This document shows positions 8-7,611 of a DNA stretch of 33,505 bases, one piece after another. Numbering within the stretch: position 1 is the stretch's first letter; the number at the start of each line of letters is the position of its first letter. Origin of the DNA: a virus (Duplodnaviria; Heunggongvirae; Uroviricota; Caudoviricetes); the IMG/VR virus record IMGVR_UViG_3300028584_000450, positions 223,394 to 256,898 of that record. The stretch is one strand, 5' to 3'. A program made the translations under genes and the position numbers. The notes beneath the pieces are model-generated. The model saw only the letters and a program-made list of their open reading frames with translations, was not told where the DNA came from and searched no databases.

Positions 8-1156
8 ATGGCAAATGATGTAAATGAAAGAAGTATCGGTGATGTAATTTCAGCAACATTTGGGCTGATTAGAATGCAAACCCAAGGAAAAAATGTCGGT
101 ATCCCATATTGGAGAGGGGCTCCTGGGATTGGAAAAACGACAATCGCAGAGGCAACTGCCGTAGCAAATGATATGAATTTTATGGGCACACATTATGCCC
201 TTCGTCCGATTGAGGAAATAAGTGGGTTACCAAATTTCACAACGGTAACTGTTAATGGAGCTCAAATGGCCGGTACTGTCTGGACATTTCCAGATATATT
301 AACAGAGTTGTATAAATTGGCAGCTAATGGTAAACCAACTGTTTGGCTTTTAGATGATTTTCATTTAGCTTCACCAGCAATCATGAATTTAGGTTATGAG
401 ATGTTTAGTGAACGGCGTCTCAGAGGATTTGAGATCCCACCAAATGTTGGATTTTTGTTGGCTGGTAATATGTCAGCAAAAGCTGGTTCAAAGAAAAATT
501 TAACTTCAGCTGTAGCAAATAGATGTTGCATAATGAATGTTAAAATGGGATTCAATGAATGGAAAAGAAACTTTGCATTGGCAACAAAAGTCAATAGCAA
601 AATTATCAATTTCCTATCACAACCAAAATCCAAGAAATTCTTCCAAGAAGAAGAACAATTGGACAGACCATGGGCATCCGCTCGAAGTTGGACACGATTT
701 TCTGAATTCTTAAATCCGTGGGAAGCAGATATGCCAATGTCAATGAGTGATGTTCTATATTATGCAGAATCTCACATTGGAACTGAAGCAGCGTCAGAAT
801 TTGCTGTATATTATAAAATCTTTTCAGAGATCGAAATGGATAAGATCTTTAATAAGGAATTACCAATCAAAATTCCAGATGATATGTCAAAGCAATATAT
901 CTATGCCTTGGCATCGGTAAGCGAGTTCATAAAAAGATACATCGCTAAAGATCCAACAGGTATAGATATCATGTCAGATATCATAATTGAGATTGCAAAA
1001 CAGAAAATCGAAATTGCAATCACAGCATTGAAAGAGATTGTAATAACAGAACAATCTCTAAAACTTCGAGATTGTTATTTCCCAATAAAAAAGATGATCA
1101 TGACTAAAGACATGGCCATTGGGAAAAAGATCGAAATCGACATCAAACACATTTAA
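8..1156 (+). CDS. MoxR-like AAA+ ATPase
   Basis: Walker A GAPGIGKT, Walker B VWLLDDF, sensor LAGN, arginine-finger region AVANRCC; directly upstream of a VWA protein, the usual MoxR arrangement. Confidence 0.85.
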   Translation: MANDVNERSIGDVISATFGLIRMQTQGKNVGIPYWRGAPGIGKTTIAEATAVANDMNFMGTHYALRPIEEISGLPNFTTVTVNGAQMAGTVWTFPDILTELYKLAANGKPTVWLLDDFHLASPAIMNLGYEMFSERRLRGFEIPPNVGFLLAGNMSAKAGSKKNLTSAVANRCCIMNVKMGFNEWKRNFALATKVNSKIINFLSQPKSKKFFQEEEQLDRPWASARSWTRFSEFLNPWEADMPMSMSDVLYYAESHIGTEAASEFAVYYKIFSEIEMDKIFNKELPIKIPDDMSKQYIYALASVSEFIKRYIAKDPTGIDIMSDIIIEIAKQKIEIAITALKEIVITEQSLKLRDCYFPIKKMIMTKDMAIGKKIEIDIKHI

Positions 1157-1161
1157 ATCAT

Positions 1162-2547
1162 ATGGGCGATTGCAATTTTGCGATTGCCCATATAAAGGAT
1201 AATCAAATGAACGCTGCCGAAAAATTAAGAATTTGCCAGATAAAGATATTAAACTCCAATTATCTTCGATTATTTGGATGTTTATATTATAATTTTGATA
1301 TAAATATAATTCCAGAATCAAGTTTATCTTGGGATGGAATGGATGAACATCAAATAGAAGATGCTAAAGCAGGATTGACTGCGGCAGTATGTGTTACTTC
1401 TAATCAAAAACCATCAATTATGATTTTTGAACATTTTATAAACCAGAACACAGTAGAAGAATTGATATTTGTATTAATTCACGAAATATTACATGTTCTA
1501 TCTGGTCATTTTAATCGAGGATCATCATTTGATCATGAAATTGCAAATTTAGCGCAAGATCATGTAATAAATGTTCCATTAGATGATGATATATCTGCTG
1601 GACTTTTAAAAAAGGTATCAACACCAAAAAGTGCATTTATAATTAATGAGTTAAGAGATAAAAATCTATCAATGGAGGAGGTATATAGTTGGTTAATTAA
1701 AAATTCTGAAACATCAACAATATCAATTAATATCAATGGGCCTGGAAATGAATCCGACTCTGAAATGACCCTTGATGTTAATGTTATAAAGATTAAAATT
1801 AATGGAAAAACCAGAACAATAATGAAAGATGTTGTTCATAATGGTAAACTAAAGAAACTAGAAAAGCAAGTTAGCGATAATTTAAAAGCTGAAGCTAGAA
1901 TCTTGAGTAACAGTGATCACATCATATCAAAAGGAGATGGACATTCCGCATTAGATAAATTAATTGCTTCAATAATTGAGGTGGAAATTCCATGGTATGT
2001 ACTAATGGAGAAAGCGATAGCCTCAAAAATTTCTCCAGATTCAGATGATCGAAGTTGGAGTAATATCCAAAAAAGACCATTTGCCCTAGGATTAAAACTC
2101 CCAGGATATGGAACTGAAGAATTGTATTCAACATTGGTGATTATGGAAGATACATCTGGAAGTGTTTCAGATACCAATGTAAAACAATTTTCCTCAGTAA
2201 TTGAACAATCTATGAAGTACTTTGATCGGGTTAGAATACTTCAACATGATATGAAAGTAAATTCAGACATAACATTAGATGTCAATGATGTAACGAATAC
2301 TGATCTCATATTTAAAATAAAAGGTCGCGGAGGCACATCTCATTATAACTGTTTTGAGATTGTACAGGAAATGTTTGATGAAGATGAAGATGTCAGTTTA
2401 GTTATAATGCTAACTGATTTTGAATCAGATATCGAAAGTTCCTGGAATAAATTTTCATGGACGAAACATATTCCAGTAAGTGTGATATTAACGAGAAAAT
2501 ATGATGTACCATCATATGTCGATAAAAAGCCAATATTAATCAAATAG
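1162..2547 (+). CDS. Metallopeptidase-like (HExxH) plus VWA domain protein (DUF2201-like), partner of the AAA+ ATPase
   Basis: HEILH zinc motif with downstream N-x-A-x-D; C-terminal MIDAS-like EDTSGSVS, GRGGTS and MLTD motifs. Confidence 0.8.
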   Translation: MGDCNFAIAHIKDNQMNAAEKLRICQIKILNSNYLRLFGCLYYNFDINIIPESSLSWDGMDEHQIEDAKAGLTAAVCVTSNQKPSIMIFEHFINQNTVEELIFVLIHEILHVLSGHFNRGSSFDHEIANLAQDHVINVPLDDDISAGLLKKVSTPKSAFIINELRDKNLSMEEVYSWLIKNSETSTISININGPGNESDSEMTLDVNVIKIKINGKTRTIMKDVVHNGKLKKLEKQVSDNLKAEARILSNSDHIISKGDGHSALDKLIASIIEVEIPWYVLMEKAIASKISPDSDDRSWSNIQKRPFALGLKLPGYGTEELYSTLVIMEDTSGSVSDTNVKQFSSVIEQSMKYFDRVRILQHDMKVNSDITLDVNDVTNTDLIFKIKGRGGTSHYNCFEIVQEMFDEDEDVSLVIMLTDFESDIESSWNKFSWTKHIPVSVILTRKYDVPSYVDKKPILIK

Positions 2548-2556
2548 GAGATAAAT

Positions 2557-2582
2557 ATTAGGGGATTTAATTATCCCCTAAT
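2557..2582. terminator. Probable bidirectional intrinsic terminator
   Basis: Perfect 10-bp stem ATTAGGGGAT/ATCCCCTAAT, 6-nt loop, T-run after it on +, located between convergent genes. Confidence 0.75.
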
Positions 2583-2591
2583 TAATTTTTT

Positions 2592-2978
2592 TTATTCGCT
2601 TGACCAAGTTGGAAGTTTTCCCATATTTAAATGATTATAATGTGTAGGAGGATGATATATTGGTTTAAGTGGTTTATGATATTTAGATGAATCTGTTTTT
2701 CTATTAAGTTTTGCTATTATATCTGCTTGTTCAAGAATAGATTCAATATTTACTTTTTTTAATCCATACTTACTCTTTAAATTTTTTGGTACACCAACGG
2801 TAGATTGAGATGTTGGTGTGAATTTAGATCTAAATGGCTTATTATTTGATGTTTGAGAATTTGAATGTTGATTTAATCTTTGTTTTATTATATTACGATA
2901 TTTTAATTGATCATTAACCGAATGAGCAGTTGTAATGATTGGTCCGGTATTTCCAATAGGAACTCCAGAAGGATCCAT
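2592..2978 (-). CDS. Hypothetical basic protein (128 aa)
   Basis: ORF with GAGAGG RBS upstream of ATG; fills the gap at the end of the small-protein operon; lacks the family C-terminal motif. Confidence 0.65.
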   Translation of the reverse strand: MDPSGVPIGNTGPIITTAHSVNDQLKYRNIIKQRLNQHSNSQTSNNKPFRSKFTPTSQSTVGVPKNLKSKYGLKKVNIESILEQADIIAKLNRKTDSSKYHKPLKPIYHPPTHYNHLNMGKLPTWSSE

Positions 2979-2998
2979 AAATATCCTCTCATATTTTA

Positions 2999-3613
2999 TT
3001 ATTTCTTTCGTCTAGAAAGATATTTCTTAGCAGCAAGTCCAGCACCAATTGCTCCAATTGTACCAGCAGTAATTGATCCAAATTTAGCTGGATTGTTCAT
3101 TATATAATCTTTAGCATCAGCTCCAAGAGATTTCAAAGATGATTTTACAGACCCAAGACCACTTCCATTCTTCAAATTATTAATTTTATCTATTGCCAAA
3201 CGATGTGAAATTGCAGCATCATCTGCTATTTTTTGAGCAGTTTTTTTAGCCCGATTATGCATATATACAGAAGTCCCACCAGCAGCAGTTAGACCACCAA
3301 CAACCAATCCACCAATACCTCCAATCTTTACTCCTTTTTTAATACTCGGTCCAGCAGTATCATTGACTCCAAGAGTATATATTCTGTCAAATTCATCCCG
3401 TGTTGTAGATTCATTTTTATTAGTAATAATATTGGTGTTTTTAGGATTATGTAATTTACGAATTTCATCAACTTTAGAGGCATATGAATTAATAAGAGTT
3501 TTTGGATTATAATGTGAAATGGCTTTAGAATTTGAATGCAAATCTCTTAAATTTGATCTTATAGAATCATTAAGTTCAGATCCTTTTTTATGATAAGCAA
3601 TATATGTATCCAT
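2999..3613 (-). CDS. KKYL-tail family protein (two glycine-zipper segments)
   Basis: Ends AGTIGAIGAGLAAKKYLSRRKK; internal GGIGGLVVGGLTAAGG; C-terminal half paralogous to 5210..5887. Confidence 0.8.
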   Translation of the reverse strand: MDTYIAYHKKGSELNDSIRSNLRDLHSNSKAISHYNPKTLINSYASKVDEIRKLHNPKNTNIITNKNESTTRDEFDRIYTLGVNDTAGPSIKKGVKIGGIGGLVVGGLTAAGGTSVYMHNRAKKTAQKIADDAAISHRLAIDKINNLKNGSGLGSVKSSLKSLGADAKDYIMNNPAKFGSITAGTIGAIGAGLAAKKYLSRRKK

Positions 3614-3624
3614 ACAATTTTCCT

Positions 3625-3900
3625 TTAATGTCCCTTTGGTCTAGAAAGATATTTCTTAGCTGCAACACCAGCACCAATGAGACCAGCTCCAAGTGCAATT
3701 TTAGGATTATCTGAGGCATAATCTGTAAGACTAGAACCTACATTTTTAACTGAATCGATAAGTCTATGTCCAGAAGTATATCCAACTGCATTCTGGAAGT
3801 TTCGGCTAGCATGTTTAACTATATGTTCTGGAGTAGGAGTAGTAGTAGTATTATTATTATTATTAACTTGATTCCGGATATTGTCTAATATAGATGGCAT
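3625..3900 (-). CDS. KKYL-tail family protein
   Basis: Ends NPKIALGAGLIGAGVAAKKYLSRPKGH; contains an Asn/Thr trinucleotide run. Confidence 0.8.
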   Translation of the reverse strand: MPSILDNIRNQVNNNNNTTTTPTPEHIVKHASRNFQNAVGYTSGHRLIDSVKNVGSSLTDYASDNPKIALGAGLIGAGVAAKKYLSRPKGH

Positions 3901-3946
3901 AATCTAATTCCTTTATAAAATAATTTTCATTTTTTAATTTTAATTT

Positions 3947-4372
3947 TTATTTTTTCTTTCGTCTAGAAAGATATTTCTTAGCTGCAATTCCAGCACCAAC
4001 GAGACCAGCAGTACCAGCAGCAGCCATACCAACTTTACCAGGATGATTCATTATATAATCTTTGGCATCGACACCAAGATCTTTCAAAGATGATTTCATA
4101 GATTTTACAGGAGTTTTAGTCCCATGTATTATATCAGATCCTAATGAATGGATATCTTTTCCTAATTTTCCACCATCCTTATATAGGGTTGAATATCTTT
4201 CATCGGAATTAATAAAATTCATAGCATCATGTTTTATATTTTTTACGTTATCATTAATTGCATCTCCGGCAGAAGTTACATGTTTATTTACATAATTCTT
4301 AACATCCATATCATCGATCTTGTCTTTTGCAGAAGTTATATGTTTATTTACATAATTTTTAATTGAATCCAT
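3947..4372 (-). CDS. KKYL-tail family protein
   Basis: AAGGAG RBS; ends NHPGKVGMAAAGTAGLVGAGIAAKKYLSRRKKK; N-terminal duplication KNYVNKH(I/V)TSA. Confidence 0.8.
   Translation of the reverse strand: MDSIKNYVNKHITSAKDKIDDMDVKNYVNKHVTSAGDAINDNVKNIKHDAMNFINSDERYSTLYKDGGKLGKDIHSLGSDIIHGTKTPVKSMKSSLKDLGVDAKDYIMNHPGKVGMAAAGTAGLVGAGIAAKKYLSRRKKK
3957..4051. repeat. 95-bp identical repeat, copy 1 (encodes the family C-terminus)
   Basis: Base-for-base identical to 4428..4522 and 5217..5311. Confidence 0.95.
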
Positions 4373-4420
4373 GATGAATACTCCTTATAATATAATTGTT
4401 AGAATAATTAAAGATTATTA

Positions 4421-4741
4421 TTATTTTTTTCGTCTAGAAAGATATTTCTTAGCTGCAATTCCAGCACCAACGAGACCAGCAGTACCAGCAGCAGCCATAC
4501 CAACTTTACCAGGATGATTCATCATATAATCTTTAACATCAGAAGCGAGATATTTTAATGTTGATCCAAGAGAATCTGGATTACGAACATTACGAAGATT
4601 TGTAATATAATATTCCACAGATCCATCAGCATTATGAATTGGATGATCAAGATCAATTTCAACTGGAGTCCCATCAGAAAAAACTGGACTCCCATATTCA
4701 TCTTTATGAATTGAATTATCAGATTTATATTTATTTATCAA
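4421..4741 (-). CDS. KKYL-tail family protein (start uncertain; possibly the 3' part of a frameshifted gene)
   Basis: Family C-terminus; only a TTG start without an evident RBS, overlapping the stop of the 28-aa ORF 4731..4817. Confidence 0.65.
   Translation of the reverse strand: MINKYKSDNSIHKDEYGSPVFSDGTPVEIDLDHPIHNADGSVEYYITNLRNVRNPDSLGSTLKYLASDVKDYMMNHPGKVGMAAAGTAGLVGAGIAAKKYLSRRKK
4428..4522. repeat. 95-bp identical repeat, copy 2
   Basis: Identical to 3957..4051. Confidence 0.95.
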
Positions 4742-4817
4742 GTCTACGGTTATGATAGTTTACTAATCCTCTCGAAGCCAAAGATGCTCCAAGTACTGTT
4801 GGTAAAATCAAATCCAT
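4731..4817 (-). CDS. 28-aa peptide MDLILPTVLGASLASRGLVNYHNRRLDK (not in ORF track)
   Basis: Read manually; fills the gap between a terminator and 4421..4741; hydrophobic then basic like the family tails; RBS weak. Confidence 0.4.
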   Translation of the reverse strand: MDLILPTVLGASLASRGLVNYHNRRLDK

Positions 4818-4865
4818 CTTTGGTATATTATGGTGCCCCTATATTTTTTTTAAAATAGACTTTTA

Positions 4866-4900
4866 AAAATAGACAGATCTAAAAAAGATCTGTCTATTTT
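4866..4900 (-). terminator. Intrinsic terminator-like hairpin
   Basis: Perfect 15-bp stem AAAATAGACAGATCT/AGATCTGTCTATTTT, 5-nt loop, just past the stop of 4909..5160. Confidence 0.7.
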
Positions 4901-4908
4901 CTAAAACA

Positions 4909-5160
4909 TTAAGCAATGATGGATTCAACCATATTACTAATCAAACAATTAGCAGCAGTTTCAGTGAAAATTGCAATATTTTCAAAAGTTTCCTCAAGAT
5001 TCTCACCAATAAAATCTTCAAGATTCTCTAAAACGTGATTTTTAATATCCTGAGGAAAAGTATGATATACAGCGGCTGCTCCGAGGATTTCATCTTCGCA
5101 ACCCTCAAGATATGATTGCATTGATTCATTTTCAAGAATAACGGAAATAAACTGTGTCAT
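4909..5160 (-). CDS. Small acidic protein, possible prohead core/scaffold-like
   Basis: AAGGAG RBS; very Glu-rich with repeated (I/L)-x-E and LE motifs (ILENE, YLEG, VLENLE, MVES), like T4-type prohead core proteins; function inferred. Confidence 0.55.
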   Translation of the reverse strand: MTQFISVILENESMQSYLEGCEDEILGAAAVYHTFPQDIKNHVLENLEDFIGENLEETFENIAIFTETAANCLISNMVESIIA

Positions 5161-5209
5161 GATAAATACTCCTTATAATATAATTGTTTACAATAATTAA
5201 AGATTATTA

Positions 5210-5887
5210 TTATTTCTTTCGTCTAGAAAGATATTTCTTAGCTGCAATTCCAGCACCAACGAGACCAGCAGTACCAGCAGCAGCCATACCAACTTTACCA
5301 GGATGATTCATCATATAATCTTTAGCATCGACACCAAGAGATTTCAAAGATGATTTTACAGACCCAAGACCACTATTACCAGTCTTCAGATTATCTGATG
5401 TTGTCTGCAGTTTATCTGCTGCCAAACGTTTGGCAATTGCAGCATCATCTGCCACTTTTTTAGCAATTTTAGCTGCACGATCCTTCATATGAAGATAACC
5501 ACCACCAGCAGCAATACCTCCCGCAGCAAGTCCACCAAGAAGACCAGCTCCCCCACCTTTTATTAAACCCTTCTTTGTTCCGCGCGATGTTCCACGCTCA
5601 TATCCTTCTTTATCTCCACTGGACTTCCCTTTATAGTAGAATTTTCGATTTCTATCTTCAACACTACTTGCAGGGTTTTTCTGTTTACCGGTATTATATG
5701 GATGGTCTTTAACTTTACTACCAGTTTTTGCAACTTCACGATCATGCTGTCTATATGCCGTATTTATTTTTTCTTGATTCGAAGATTGTAAACTTTCCTC
5801 GATAGATGCAAAATCAATCCCAGAACAAGTACCACCAGAAGATTCGATAGATTCATGAACAAGTTGTCTAATATTAATAGAAGCCAT
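5210..5887 (-). CDS. KKYL-tail family protein (two glycine-zipper segments)
   Basis: N-term MASINIRQLVHESIE; internal GGGAGLLGGLAAGGIAAGGG; family C-terminus. Confidence 0.8.
   Translation of the reverse strand: MASINIRQLVHESIESSGGTCSGIDFASIEESLQSSNQEKINTAYRQHDREVAKTGSKVKDHPYNTGKQKNPASSVEDRNRKFYYKGKSSGDKEGYERGTSRGTKKGLIKGGGAGLLGGLAAGGIAAGGGYLHMKDRAAKIAKKVADDAAIAKRLAADKLQTTSDNLKTGNSGLGSVKSSLKSLGVDAKDYMMNHPGKVGMAAAGTAGLVGAGIAAKKYLSRRKK
5217..5311. repeat. 95-bp identical repeat, copy 3
   Basis: Identical to 3957..4051. Confidence 0.95.
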
Positions 5888-5961
5888 AATAATTTTCCTT
5901 TTATAAATTAATGTTGTTTATTTTATCTTATTTAGAAAAAATACTAAATAAAAAACCAGAT

Positions 5962-6432
5962 TCAATTTTTATTTTTACGATATTGTAAATACTTCTTAAT
6001 ACCAACCCCAGTAGCAATGCCACCAGCAATTGCACCACCACCAGCACCAATAATACCAAAAATATCAGCAATAATAGACTCTGGGTCTTCCGACTTTGGT
6101 GCCTCTTTTTTTAATCTCATAAGTTCATCAGACATATGTTTATACTCAATTGCTTTAACAGCGGCTAAATCTTGGGCACTTTTTATTTTCTCTCGAAGTA
6201 CATCTTTACCTAAACTTCCAAGAAAATATCCGCCAGCTCCGCCAGCAGCAACTCCACCAACAGCAGCAGTCATATTAGTATTAACTGGCTTTGCATTTCC
6301 AGTTTCAATCTTTTTTTTACCATATCCATATGCAGTTTTTGATGTATCCCATGCCTTGCCTGGCGCTTTTGATATAATACCTTTAGCTCGATCCCATTTG
6401 GGACCTTCAAGAATAATTTGGTTTATATCCAT
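5962..6432 (-). CDS. KKYL-tail family protein (divergent)
   Basis: Start moved to MDINQIILEG (GGAG 8 nt upstream; abuts the previous gene's stop at 6434); ends GAGGGAIAGGIATGVGIKKYLQYRKNKN. Confidence 0.75.
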   Translation of the reverse strand: MDINQIILEGPKWDRAKGIISKAPGKAWDTSKTAYGYGKKKIETGNAKPVNTNMTAAVGGVAAGGAGGYFLGSLGKDVLREKIKSAQDLAAVKAIEYKHMSDELMRLKKEAPKSEDPESIIADIFGIIGAGGGAIAGGIATGVGIKKYLQYRKNKN

Positions 6433-6433
6433 A

Positions 6434-6688
6434 TCATAATCTCCGTTGTCCATTCTTATTACCAAGATGGGCAGCAAGACCAACAGCAGCCGCTCCTAAT
6501 GCAGCATGAGGGTGAGCGCTAATAGTATCCATAATTCCACCAACAGCACCTTTAGCATGATTGCCAAGATCATGTCCAGCAGCAGTAAGACTAGAACCAG
6601 CTTGTCTAGTTTTTGCAGCAACATCCGCCGGATTTACATATTTAGTTGGTACAAATGCTTCAATAACTAATTGATTAATATCCATCAT
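6434..6688 (-). CDS. KKYL-tail family protein (divergent)
   Basis: MMDINQLVIEA start coupled to the upstream stop (ATGA); ends HPHAALGAAAVGLAAHLGNKNGQRRL. Confidence 0.75.
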   Translation of the reverse strand: MMDINQLVIEAFVPTKYVNPADVAAKTRQAGSSLTAAGHDLGNHAKGAVGGIMDTISAHPHAALGAAAVGLAAHLGNKNGQRRL

Positions 6689-7335
6689 GTTCTCCGACTA
6701 AATTTCTTTTTAAGATATGCAGCTCCACCAATTGCAGCCGCTCCAATTGCAGCGTGAGGATGATTTGAAATTACATCTAAAGTATGACCAACAATACCTT
6801 TTCCAGCATCTGAAACATGATTTGCAGCTTTAGTAGCTGTACTTGCAACGGTAGATGCGTGATCACCAATACCTTTTCCAGCATCTGAAACATGATTTAC
6901 AGCTTTAGTAGCTGTACTTGCAACGGTAGATGCGTGATCACCAATACCTTTTCCAGCATCTGAAACATGATTTACAACTTTAGTAGCTTTACTTGCAACG
7001 GCAGATGTATTATTATGTGGAGATACAGCAGCAGAGACTGAATGATTTATTGGGTTTGAACTTGGAGGTTTAGGAATTGGATACTTATGTTCATCTGGAG
7101 ATGGAGATGTAGTTACCTTTGCCTTTGGTTCAGTATATTTAGCTCCAGGACCAAAATCGGTCCAATGATTTGGATCATGTTGTCCTGGAACTGTAGTTGG
7201 ACTGTTTGCACGATACACTTGTCGTTTTATCGCATCAGACTTGGCCTTTTTAGCAGCAACAGTGGCTATATATTTCGGATCATCATATCCATCTTCAAAT
7301 ATTGACATTTGAACTAAATCATTAATATCTGACAT
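6685..7335 (-). CDS. KKYL-tail family protein with 25-aa tandem repeat
   Basis: MSDINDLVQMSIFE start; Pro-rich linker; ends NHPHAAIGAAAIGGAAYLKKKFSRRT. Confidence 0.8.
   Translation of the reverse strand: MSDINDLVQMSIFEDGYDDPKYIATVAAKKAKSDAIKRQVYRANSPTTVPGQHDPNHWTDFGPGAKYTEPKAKVTTSPSPDEHKYPIPKPPSSNPINHSVSAAVSPHNNTSAVASKATKVVNHVSDAGKGIGDHASTVASTATKAVNHVSDAGKGIGDHASTVASTATKAANHVSDAGKGIVGHTLDVISNHPHAAIGAAAIGGAAYLKKKFSRRT
6792..7001. repeat. 75-bp tandem repeat, about 2.8 copies, in frame
   Basis: CAATACCTTTTCCAGCATCTGAAACATG recurs at 6792, 6867 and 6942. Confidence 0.95.
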
Positions 7336-7341
7336 AATATT

Positions 7342-7611
7342 CTATCCTTTATTCCTATTAAGATATTTTTTAGCAGCAACACTCGTGGCTAAAATTGAAA
7401 TTGAATTACTCATCTCTTCAATTATTTCTTGAGTGATGTCAGATACTCCAGGAATAAACATATTATTCTCTAATAATTTAGTCTTAAATAATTCAATATG
7501 TTCGGAATTCTCAAATATTTCTGGAAACACATCCTCTAAAAGAGTTGCAGAAATAATCGGTTCATTTTTAAGCTCACTTACTAATTCTTCTATAAATAAT
7601 TGCATTGTCAT
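7342..7611 (-). CDS. Acidic protein with KKYL tail
   Basis: Glu-rich (LLED, IFEN, LLEN, IIEE) and ends ILATSVAAKKYLNRNKG. Confidence 0.75.
   Translation of the reverse strand: MTMQLFIEELVSELKNEPIISATLLEDVFPEIFENSEHIELFKTKLLENNMFIPGVSDITQEIIEEMSNSISILATSVAAKKYLNRNKG

Follow-up and report, generated by a model that had tools for sequence, protein, structure and literature searches.

What is the role of an array of small phage proteins that are otherwise featureless and end in nearly the same residues? The question is raised by the IMG/VR virus record IMGVR_UViG_3300028584_000450, of which we analyzed a stretch of 33,505 nucleotides (nt), here called the window. The window is the final 33.5 kb of the 256,898-bp record (CheckV completeness 92%). 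The sequence is AT-rich, with a GC content of about 30%, and on the minus strand, from 7611 to 2999, it carries ten small genes that are tightly packed or overlapping. A preliminary description had noted nine open reading frames (ORFs) with a glycine zipper and a basic KKYL tail in this array, and had read the tail as a tag that delivers variable cargo to the membrane or the capsid interior. In this study, the array was found to consist of nine paralogs of an unnamed family that is confined to a clade of uncultivated jumbo myophages. As to their function, we give an even chance to the interpretation that the array members are virion-internal or ejected proteins, with a tail that becomes membrane- or DNA-active after ejection.

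A conserved module confined to the C-terminus

A common C-terminal module was found on nine of the ten genes, the exception being a gene for an acidic protein of 83 amino acids (aa). The nine ORFs noted earlier all exist, and two of their tails are degenerate (6434-6688, ...AAHLGNKNGQRRL; 6685-7335, ...AAYLKKKFSRRT); the other seven have a strict tail with a literal A-A/I-K-K-Y-L followed by 4-6 mostly basic residues. The members are numbered in Table 1. Among the 1,045 ORFs of at least 40 aa in the whole genome (256,898 bp), KK[YF]L-type C-termini occur only eight times, seven of them in the array. The shared C-terminal module is real and well above chance expectation.

According to the alignment, the conserved module is 45-50 residues long and starts with an amphipathic segment, ...K-x-L-G-x-x-A-K-D-Y-x-x-(D/E/N)-(N/H)-P-(G)-K. 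Its middle is a zipper of 10-18 residues with 62% Ala+Gly and L/V/I at every third or fourth position, and it ends in G-A-G-x-A-A-K-K-Y-L followed by 4-7 more residues, mostly Lys/Arg. The hydrophobic stretch recognized earlier is thus present, at 10-18 residues instead of the 15-20 given before. The small residues are striped at i and i+4 along the zipper, which fits tight helix packing. Seven members have D-Y-x-x-N-(H/N)-P or a variant ahead of the zipper, in agreement with the preliminary description, and the second internal glycine zipper that it had reported in three members (2999-3613, 5210-5887 and 5962-6483, at residues 73-89 in the last) could be located (Table 1). The net charge is basic (+2 to +20) in nearly all family members.

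A profile was built from the C-terminal 50 residues of all nine members and searched against 1.84 billion representative proteins. At an expectation value (E) <= 1e-3 it returned 34 matches, namely nine proteins of the phage itself, about 20 foreign ones and five that are off-type. The best match was member 8 (P0004, E 3.8e-18), and the others include member 2 (P0006, E 1.2e-15), member 3 (P0007, E 2.1e-14) and member 1 (P0009, E 6.1e-11). The roughly 20 foreign proteins have 88-246 aa, and the profile match lies within 8 residues of the C-terminus in every one of them, as had been anticipated for a C-terminally restricted tail; P0017, P0021 and P0023 are orthologs of member 5. Three off-type matches are partial, namely a junk repeat translation, an ARM-repeat protein that matches through 'VNHPNHP' only, and a 5,271-aa protein. 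A further one, P0033, is a small two-zipper protein, and the last, the foreign P0028 (381 aa), contains four internal tail-like units (AHPKKALALGAAAGLGAGYG...basic), so the tail module can occur as an internal repeat too. Apart from these cases, the tail is an unnamed module confined to the C-terminus.

No Pfam domain was found in the nine own or the 20 foreign full-length proteins, in line with the earlier remark that this is not a named family; neither matches away from the C-terminus among the family proteins nor a known enzyme family came to light. Neither at the DNA nor at the protein level did the GenBank phages match the region, the acidic protein or P0017, the array family was not found in IMG/VR by a pattern search, and a word-index homology search with the 225-aa member recovered only its own paralogs. 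In the Protein Atlas, only viral hypothetical proteins below the lead threshold were obtained.

The conserved residues of the tail, and those of the leader described below, are encoded by differing synonymous codons across lineages, which indicates selection on both as peptides and rules out a conserved DNA or RNA element. For the 22-codon tail core, the ratios of nonsynonymous to synonymous differences (pN/pS, NG86) are about 0.4-1, and A/G/V/I/L interchange freely.

A leader shared with head proteins

In addition to the tail, a short N-terminal leader was recognized, with the local consensus MxDINxLVxE and the form MASIDINKLIQES in relatives. Its clear local form begins four members (6434-6688, 6685-7335, 5962-6432 and 5210-5887) and a looser form begins 7342-7611, so that five of the nine array members have it. 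MASIDINKLIQES or a close variant also begins 14 of the 20 foreign proteins, which had been picked by the tail alone, and the conservation ends directly after the Glu. The N-terminal regions, earlier described as unrelated, are therefore not so throughout, since five members have the leader and the paralogs 5210-5887 and 2999-3613 are 64% identical over 123 residues. The ORF 5962-6483 probably has its true start at the ATG at 6432, giving 156 aa with the leader MDINQIILEG, and its database form, P0010, likewise has 156 aa.

Of 311 genes, 13 have the pattern D[IL]N...[ILVMF]xE within their first 32 residues, compared with about 0.9 expected and a maximum of 4 in 500 shuffles. Among the 13 are the genes for the major capsid protein and for a scaffold-like protein, the latter situated between protease and portal; the leader-like starts of the two proteins are DLNLSDMIFE and DLNQKFNQYIQE, respectively. 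The leader was also found without the tail, in several small proteins of this genome and in a zinc-ribbon protein of one relative (L016), which indicates that tail and leader are separable modules; the tail-bearing proteins are largely a subset of the leader-bearing ones. The leader-only proteins of this genome (G000:C1 180313-180894 and 134446-145950, both on the minus strand) start with MDINTLILE..., MSDINQLVLEG..., MDINDLVTNAILE..., MNMDINQLVLES... and MNINEMVESAVVE..., and are candidates for additional head-loaded proteins.

As a sequence pattern, a short N-terminal leader ending in x-E on otherwise dissimilar proteins is what would be expected of a propeptide. Since the leader is common to capsid, scaffold-like and leader-only proteins, it may act as a capsid-targeting signal, and capsid targeting by the leader appears more plausible than by the tail.

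The head module, which lies outside the window, has a T4-like gene order and encodes a probable portal (713 aa), a Gln-rich scaffold-like protein (150 aa), a protease (253 aa) and the capsid protein (538 aa). The major capsid protein (genome 99345-100961) matches phrog_20655 (E 4.6e-14), and the head maturation protease beside it matches phrog_3014 (E 5.8e-15). The protease belongs to Peptidase_S80 (PF20034, 25.2 bits against a cut-off of 23.4), the phiKZ gp175 family, and neither the S77 (PF03420) nor the T4 portal Pfam models had a match in the genome.

Spacers and duplication within the array

The middle regions of the members consist of tandem repeats or low-complexity sequence, and the AlphaFold2 (AF2) model of the 225-aa member has no fold (predicted local distance difference test score, pLDDT, 42). 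These data indicate that the middles are spacers and not cargo, and that the mature protein works through its conserved C-terminal tail; the idea of a tag on variable cargo has to be given up on this point. The clearest repeats are three tandem 75-nt units (6785-7009, minus strand), 89-96% identical, inside 6685-7335, which encode the 25-aa unit ATKAVNHVSDAGKGIGDHASTVAST, and comparable internal peptide repeats were seen in 3947-4372 and in the foreign members P0016, P0019 and L016. For 6685-7335, weak matches to SctB2 (Pfam) and to tape-measure families (PHROG) fall on the Gly/Ala-rich repeats and were treated as compositional.

Five tails (2999, 3625, 3947, 4421 and 5210) are also DNA repeats of 64-167 nt with 72-93% identity, which extend past the stop codon into the downstream intergenic stretch, and the intergenic regions upstream of 4909-5160 and of 3947-4372 are near-duplicates. 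Based on these repeats, the array portion that follows the acidic gene arose recently, by duplication or conversion of the 3' part of 5210-5887; the four upstream members are old and diverged. The 22-codon tail cores of 4421-4741 and 5210-5887 are identical, and the two genes agree at 96% over the last 120 nt. Because the TTG-started 4421-4741 is preceded by a 167-nt gap without an ORF (4742-4908), with its frame open for 112 codons only, it may be a 5'-truncated duplicate. The possibility that 7342-7611 is a fusion of the acidic protein with a tail was ruled out (hhalign probability 1.7%).

Gene context of the array

The array is preceded by a gene for a 685-aa protein, for which 13 full-length homologs were found. 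In its AF2 model, built from 14 homologs (pLDDT 71), residues 1-224 have a tail-terminator fold with beta-rich extensions beyond. With VIA-align, these residues align to more than 25 solved terminators at Z 6-11, including the phiKZ neck (9xps_w, Z 11.3), T5 p142 (Z 9.7), T4 gp15 (Z 8.9) and lambda gpU (Z 6.8), and Foldseek concurs with a probability of 1.00 for T4 gp15 and the phiKZ neck. Judged by its model, the protein is a tail-terminator homolog. It is long for a terminator (685 aa, compared with about 130-270 aa in most); its additional beta-rich domains (residues 235-529) are similar to capsid-associated chains of jumbo phages (S6 7x30_a, Z 10.6; phiKZ 8y6v_a, Z 7.3), and other phages have the N-terminal third joined to FN3-like domains (PF16656, PF00041).

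The context in relatives was taken from the contigs that encode the family proteins and from one metagenome-assembled genome contig. The order there is the terminator homolog, 1-5 tagged genes, the acidic homolog and one or two small genes, followed by a convergent DUF2201 gene and an AAA ATPase gene, and it was seen in at least five lineages (L009, L010, L014, L015, L016, L020 and the P0040 contig). The nine tagged genes of the present phage are the largest number seen among the lineages carrying this cassette. In L010, L015 and the P0040 contig, the terminator homolog precedes the tagged genes, and the acidic homolog always comes after them (L009, L010, L014, L015, L016, L020). The AAA ATPase and DUF2201 pair adjoins the cassette wherever the contigs reach that far (P0040 contig, L015, L016, L020); these genes are conserved cassette neighbors, and any functional link, such as a chaperone or protease action on the tagged proteins, is hypothetical. 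Related-locus searches with the 685-aa protein, the DUF2201 protein and, in viral and metagenome contigs, the acidic alignment returned nothing.

Concerning the acidic 83-aa protein, its homologs fall into 37 unnamed clusters among 5.8e9 proteins, and it is probably a core or chaperone partner of the tagged proteins. A complex prediction with the tail module (score 0.02, controls not run) speaks neither for nor against such a partnership.

A scan of the sequence for sigma-70 promoters gave 49 matches, compared with 48.6 by chance. Four antisense ORFs on the plus strand (6017-6439, 2907-3107, 4371-4517 and 5184-5306) are Pro/Ala-rich (e.g. ...RLERYFLAA.PAP...), mirroring the Gly/Ala-rich tails, and are very unlikely to be genes.

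Table 1. Positions of the array members, their neighbors and the head module; positions are those of the window unless G000:C1 is given.
Feature	Position	Strand	Tail	Description
AAA ATPase (phrog_1297)	8-1156	(+)		convergent to cassette
DUF2201 HExxH metallopeptidase/VWA protein	1162-2547	(+)		convergent to cassette
Bidirectional hairpin terminator	2557..2582			10-bp stem, T runs on both strands; between array and convergent DUF2201 gene
Last unit gene	2592..2978	(-)	untagged	128 aa, basic; conserved ...SILEQ... motif also in last cassette gene of L016 and L020
Member 9	2999..3613	(-)	strict	204 aa; without canonical leader; internal zipper 95-111
Member 8	3625..3900	(-)	strict	91 aa; short zipper; ends AAKKYLSRPKGH
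Member 7	3947..4372	(-)	strict	141 aa; degenerate leader MDSIKNYVNK, two 20-aa repeats, full tail
Member 6	4421..4741	(-)	strict	106 aa; TTG start only, without leader
Acidic partner (probable)	4909..5160	(-)	untagged	83 aa; N-terminus MTQFISVILENE with hydrophobic-x-E motif
Member 5	5210..5887	(-)	strict	225 aa; leader MASINIRQLVHESIE, internal zipper 109-132, amphipathic helix, full tail
Member 4	5962..6432	(-)	strict	156 aa (ORF 5962-6483); leader MDINQIILEG; internal and C-terminal zipper; ends IKKYLQYRKNKN
Member 3	6434..6688	(-)	degenerate	84 aa; leader MMDINQLVIE, tail ...AHPHAALGAAAVGLAAHLGNKNGQRRL
Member 2	6685..7335	(-)	degenerate	216 aa; leader MSDINDLVQMSIFE, three 25-aa tandem repeats, tail ...NHPHAAIGAAAIGGAAYLKKKFSRRT
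Member 1	7342..7611	(-)	strict	89 aa; acidic body, variant leader MTMQLFIEELVSE, short zipper, AAKKYLNRNKG end; 9 nt past terminator gene
Tail-terminator-like gene	7621..9678	(-)		685 aa; heads cassette, 9 nt upstream of array
Head module	G000:C1 99345-104371			outside window; T4-like order: portal, scaffold-like, protease, capsid

A model for packaging and ejection

We infer packaging, cleavage, ejection, an activity on membrane or DNA and the part played by the acidic protein, starting from what was observed, namely the family itself, its two separable signals, the C-terminal-only tail, the synteny with the terminator, the S80 protease, and the leader on capsid and scaffold-like proteins. 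The sequence evidence makes association of the tagged proteins with the virion rather probable, and their insertion into a membrane after ejection possible but doubtful.

In this model, an N-terminal propeptide of 10-15 residues (M-x-D-I-N-x-L-V-x-E; MASIDINKLIQE-S in relatives) would target the precursor to the assembling prohead, where the S80 prohead protease would remove it by cutting after the Glu, in parallel with the T4 capsid-targeting sequence and the leaders of phiKZ gp93 and SPN3US gp53-54. Between the two signals there would be a variable spacer of low complexity or tandem repeats, followed by an amphipathic helix, the (D/E/N)-(N/H)-P break, the 10-18-residue Ala/Gly 'small-xxx-small' zipper, A-K-K-Y-L and the basic end. 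Since the zipper is too weakly hydrophobic for a constitutive anchor, the protein would be made and packaged in soluble form. The mature basic proteins would sit with the DNA, possibly alongside the acidic partner, and would exit together with the DNA at infection. After ejection, the zippers may associate with one another and insert into the cytoplasmic membrane of the host, and the polybasic end would stay on the negatively charged cytoplasmic face or bound to the incoming DNA. The C-terminus of T7 gp16 and the glycine-zipper-dependent translocation of an effector, both discussed below, are parallels to this step.

A more speculative version, which we regard as rather unlikely, takes the C-terminal module as a portable, self-inserting 'ejectosome tag' in a two-address system of capsid loading followed by host-membrane insertion. 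The proteins would be soluble in the capsid, the zipper would oligomerize in the host cytoplasmic membrane, the cytoplasmic side would attract the polybasic end, and paralogs with differing spacer lengths would build or anchor a DNA-entry channel or compartment of the jumbo myophage.

How the very long genomes of contractile-tailed jumbo phages enter across the cytoplasmic membrane, and which proteins travel with them, is poorly understood outside the phiKZ group. The present family is a defined candidate in this regard, with two short, separable, conserved signals on otherwise featureless proteins, together with a neck gene and an acidic partner. If the leader loads proteins into the heads of S80-protease phages and the tail is directed, once ejected, to the host membrane or DNA, the two signals would make useful tools for packaging and delivering cargo, and would help to recognize ejected proteins in metagenomic phage genomes. 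Even with a tail that only binds DNA or bundles, the family would be a new one among inner-capsid proteins.

Alternative explanations

The model has to be weighed against the possibility that the array proteins reside in the inner membrane like ElaB/YqjD, either C-tail-anchored or as two-helix hairpins. They would then be synthesized in infected cells without ever being packaged, and could be, for instance, modulators of ribosomes or membranes; the N-terminal motif would have some other role. DUF883_C matches 5 of the 29 family tails weakly (best E 0.0024), and a comparison of the tails with ElaB/YqjD/YgaM by hhalign gave a probability of 41% over 21 columns, which comprise the ...A-x-D-Y-x-x-x-x-P helix, in register, with the zipper outside. 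The first row of the Atlas structure search was a DUF883 cluster (TM 0.50 over 37 residues, a single helix), one foreign protein, P0022, has an ElaB-like H-P-W, and the three two-zipper members could form an N-in/C-in hairpin. This weak, in-register likeness keeps the in-cell membrane-anchor reading alive and counts against packaging. Membership in DUF883 does not follow from it, however, since PF19029 (DUF883_C, 27-bit gathering score) had no match in the phage genome at E <= 10 and the DUF883 N-terminal helical domain (PF05957) had no Pfam match in the nine own and 20 foreign proteins; a distant common origin is possible on the sequences. The membrane character of the tails differs as well. 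On an approximate Hessa-type scale, the best 19-mers score +3 to +11 (mean 6.4) in the tails and +1.4 to +2.4 in ElaB, YqjD and YgaM, figures that are approximate, the scale being without position terms, and the zipper of some tails has no more than 10-14 residues. Beyond the zipper follow 9-12 residues with a charge of +4 to +8, in contrast to 2-3 residues in ElaB-type proteins. In a tail-anchor topology this segment would need to cross the membrane, against the positive-inside rule; a tail anchor would instead have a hydrophobic C-terminal transmembrane (TM) helix ending in 1-3 residues. The tail-anchored layout considered in the preliminary description is weakened by these properties, that is, by a zipper of 62% Ala+Gly that is far less hydrophobic than the anchors of ElaB-type proteins and has 4-8 positive charges behind it. 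As the genes also stand in a structural-gene unit behind the tail terminator and the leader is common to capsid and scaffold-like proteins, we consider anchoring in the infected cell unlikely.

It is similarly improbable, in our judgment, that the proteins are packaged and the tail has no membrane role at all, the zipper bundling a core or inner-body-like mass and the polybasic end binding and neutralizing the packaged DNA, or, in a variant, the tail docking to the shell or scaffold like encapsulin cargo-loading peptides or the P22 scaffold C-terminus. Such a role would suit the net basic charge, which the T4 internal proteins also have, the small-xxx-small stripes with their fit to tight helix packing, and a zipper too polar for a stable monomeric TM helix; the very acidic, co-conserved small partner could balance the core charge, and jumbo phages are known to pack large paralogous inner-body families (PMC5694885). 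This explanation differs from the ejection model solely in the post-ejection step. The weak likeness of the tails to DUF883_C and Gram_pos_anchor, and the layout of Pro-break, zipper and basic stop, are nevertheless typical of membrane segments, and the leader-only proteins suggest that the tail is dispensable for packaging. A function in lysis or membrane damage, as holin/pinholin-like or cationic disruptin-like proteins, appears highly improbable. Holins and pinholins are small proteins with a glycine-zipper helix and a charged basic C-terminus, a layout that is similar here, and three members have two hydrophobic segments. However, the array proteins had no PHROG or Pfam holin or lysis match, no endolysin was recognized among the window genes scanned with Pfam or PHROGs, the N-terminal regions are long and hydrophilic with a loop of about 65 residues between the zippers, and nine paralogs with a head-protein leader behind a tail terminator are unlike lysis cassettes. 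Superinfection-exclusion or anti-defence effectors, also put forward at the outset, found no support, as the search for defence families (PADLOC) gave no credible match and a single marginal one (E 0.0067).

Several further observations weigh against packaging and ejection. A clear leader is absent in four of the nine members, all of them downstream of the acidic gene. The predicted P3 residue is I/V/L/M instead of the S/A/G-x-E of the S80 sites of phiKZ and SPN3US, and is more T4-like. In PHROGs, the array proteins had no significant match to an ejection-protein family and only weak tape-measure ones, and phiKZ_IP (PF12699) had no match in the genome at E <= 10. The array is about 125 kb away from the head module, and the gene order conserved within one clade may reflect general collinearity instead of a functional link. 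Among the roles listed in the preliminary description, a role in the virion or in ejection is nevertheless the best supported.

Comparison with known systems

The resemblance to ElaB/DUF883 proteins consists of a helical body, ...D-Y-x-x-x-x-P, a glycine-zipper helix and a basic C-terminal end, with weak statistics; the array family differs in its N-terminal leader and its phage structural-gene context. A glycine zipper is also required for the translocation of Tde1, an effector of the type VI secretion system (T6SS), into prey cells (PMC10240207). There, a GxxxG-type zipper of an injected protein permeabilizes the target cytoplasmic membrane, which is an analogy only, as the zipper of Tde1 is N-terminal, its cargo is a DNase and its delivery is by T6SS.

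A further comparison is with the podovirus ejection proteins such as T7 gp16 (and P22 gp16/gp20/gp7), internal virion proteins with putative TM helices and a positive C-terminus. T7 gp16 has putative C-terminal TM helices, requires five positive C-terminal residues for infectivity, and purifies as a soluble protein, being soluble before ejection and membrane-inserted afterwards (PMC8954989). It is, however, a large, folded core-stack protein of 1,318 residues, no relation to it is detected by PHROGs, and the present phage has a terminator of the contractile-tail type, unlike the podovirus T7.

The internal proteins of T4 offer the model for the leader. Their 10-residue N-terminal capsid-targeting sequence (CTS) loads diverse and even foreign proteins and is cleaved off by gp21 (PMC9026906). 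As in IPI, IPII, IPIII and Alt, a hydrophobic-x-E leader stands here on small, basic, otherwise dissimilar proteins and also on head proteins; in both systems the leader is portable, the genes lie away from the head cluster, and the copy number varies among relatives (PMC9026906). In contrast, no sequence homology exists between the two sets, and the protease here is of the S80 family and that of T4 of S77. To our knowledge, the T4 internal proteins have no conserved C-terminal module of an Ala/Gly zipper and a polybasic end.

The inner-body families of phiKZ (gp93-95) and SPN3US (gp53/54), with the proteases gp175 and gp245, share with the present case the jumbo myophage, the S80 protease and the tandem paralogs. 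Giant phages with S80 proteases, the phiKZ gp175 family, have abundant paralogous ejection proteins with near-identical leaders; SPN3US gp53 and gp54 have the common leader MANFVKSKLARESVE, phiKZ gp93 is cut at SLE-13, and the cleavage motif is S/A/G-x-E (PMC5694885). The SPN3US leader, MANFVKSKLARESVE, is cut at about residue 12-13 (leaders of 12-15 residues) and closely resembles MASIDINKLIQES. The array proteins differ from the phiKZ_IP proteins in that PF12699 is unmatched and in being non-globular, with 84-225 aa compared with about 31 kDa, and they differ from the phiKZ and SPN3US proteins in the presumed P3 residue (I/V/L/M compared with S/A/G). From their sequences, the tagged proteins are best classed as internal or ejection proteins of the type processed by a prohead protease, and what is new in them is the conserved C-terminal module.

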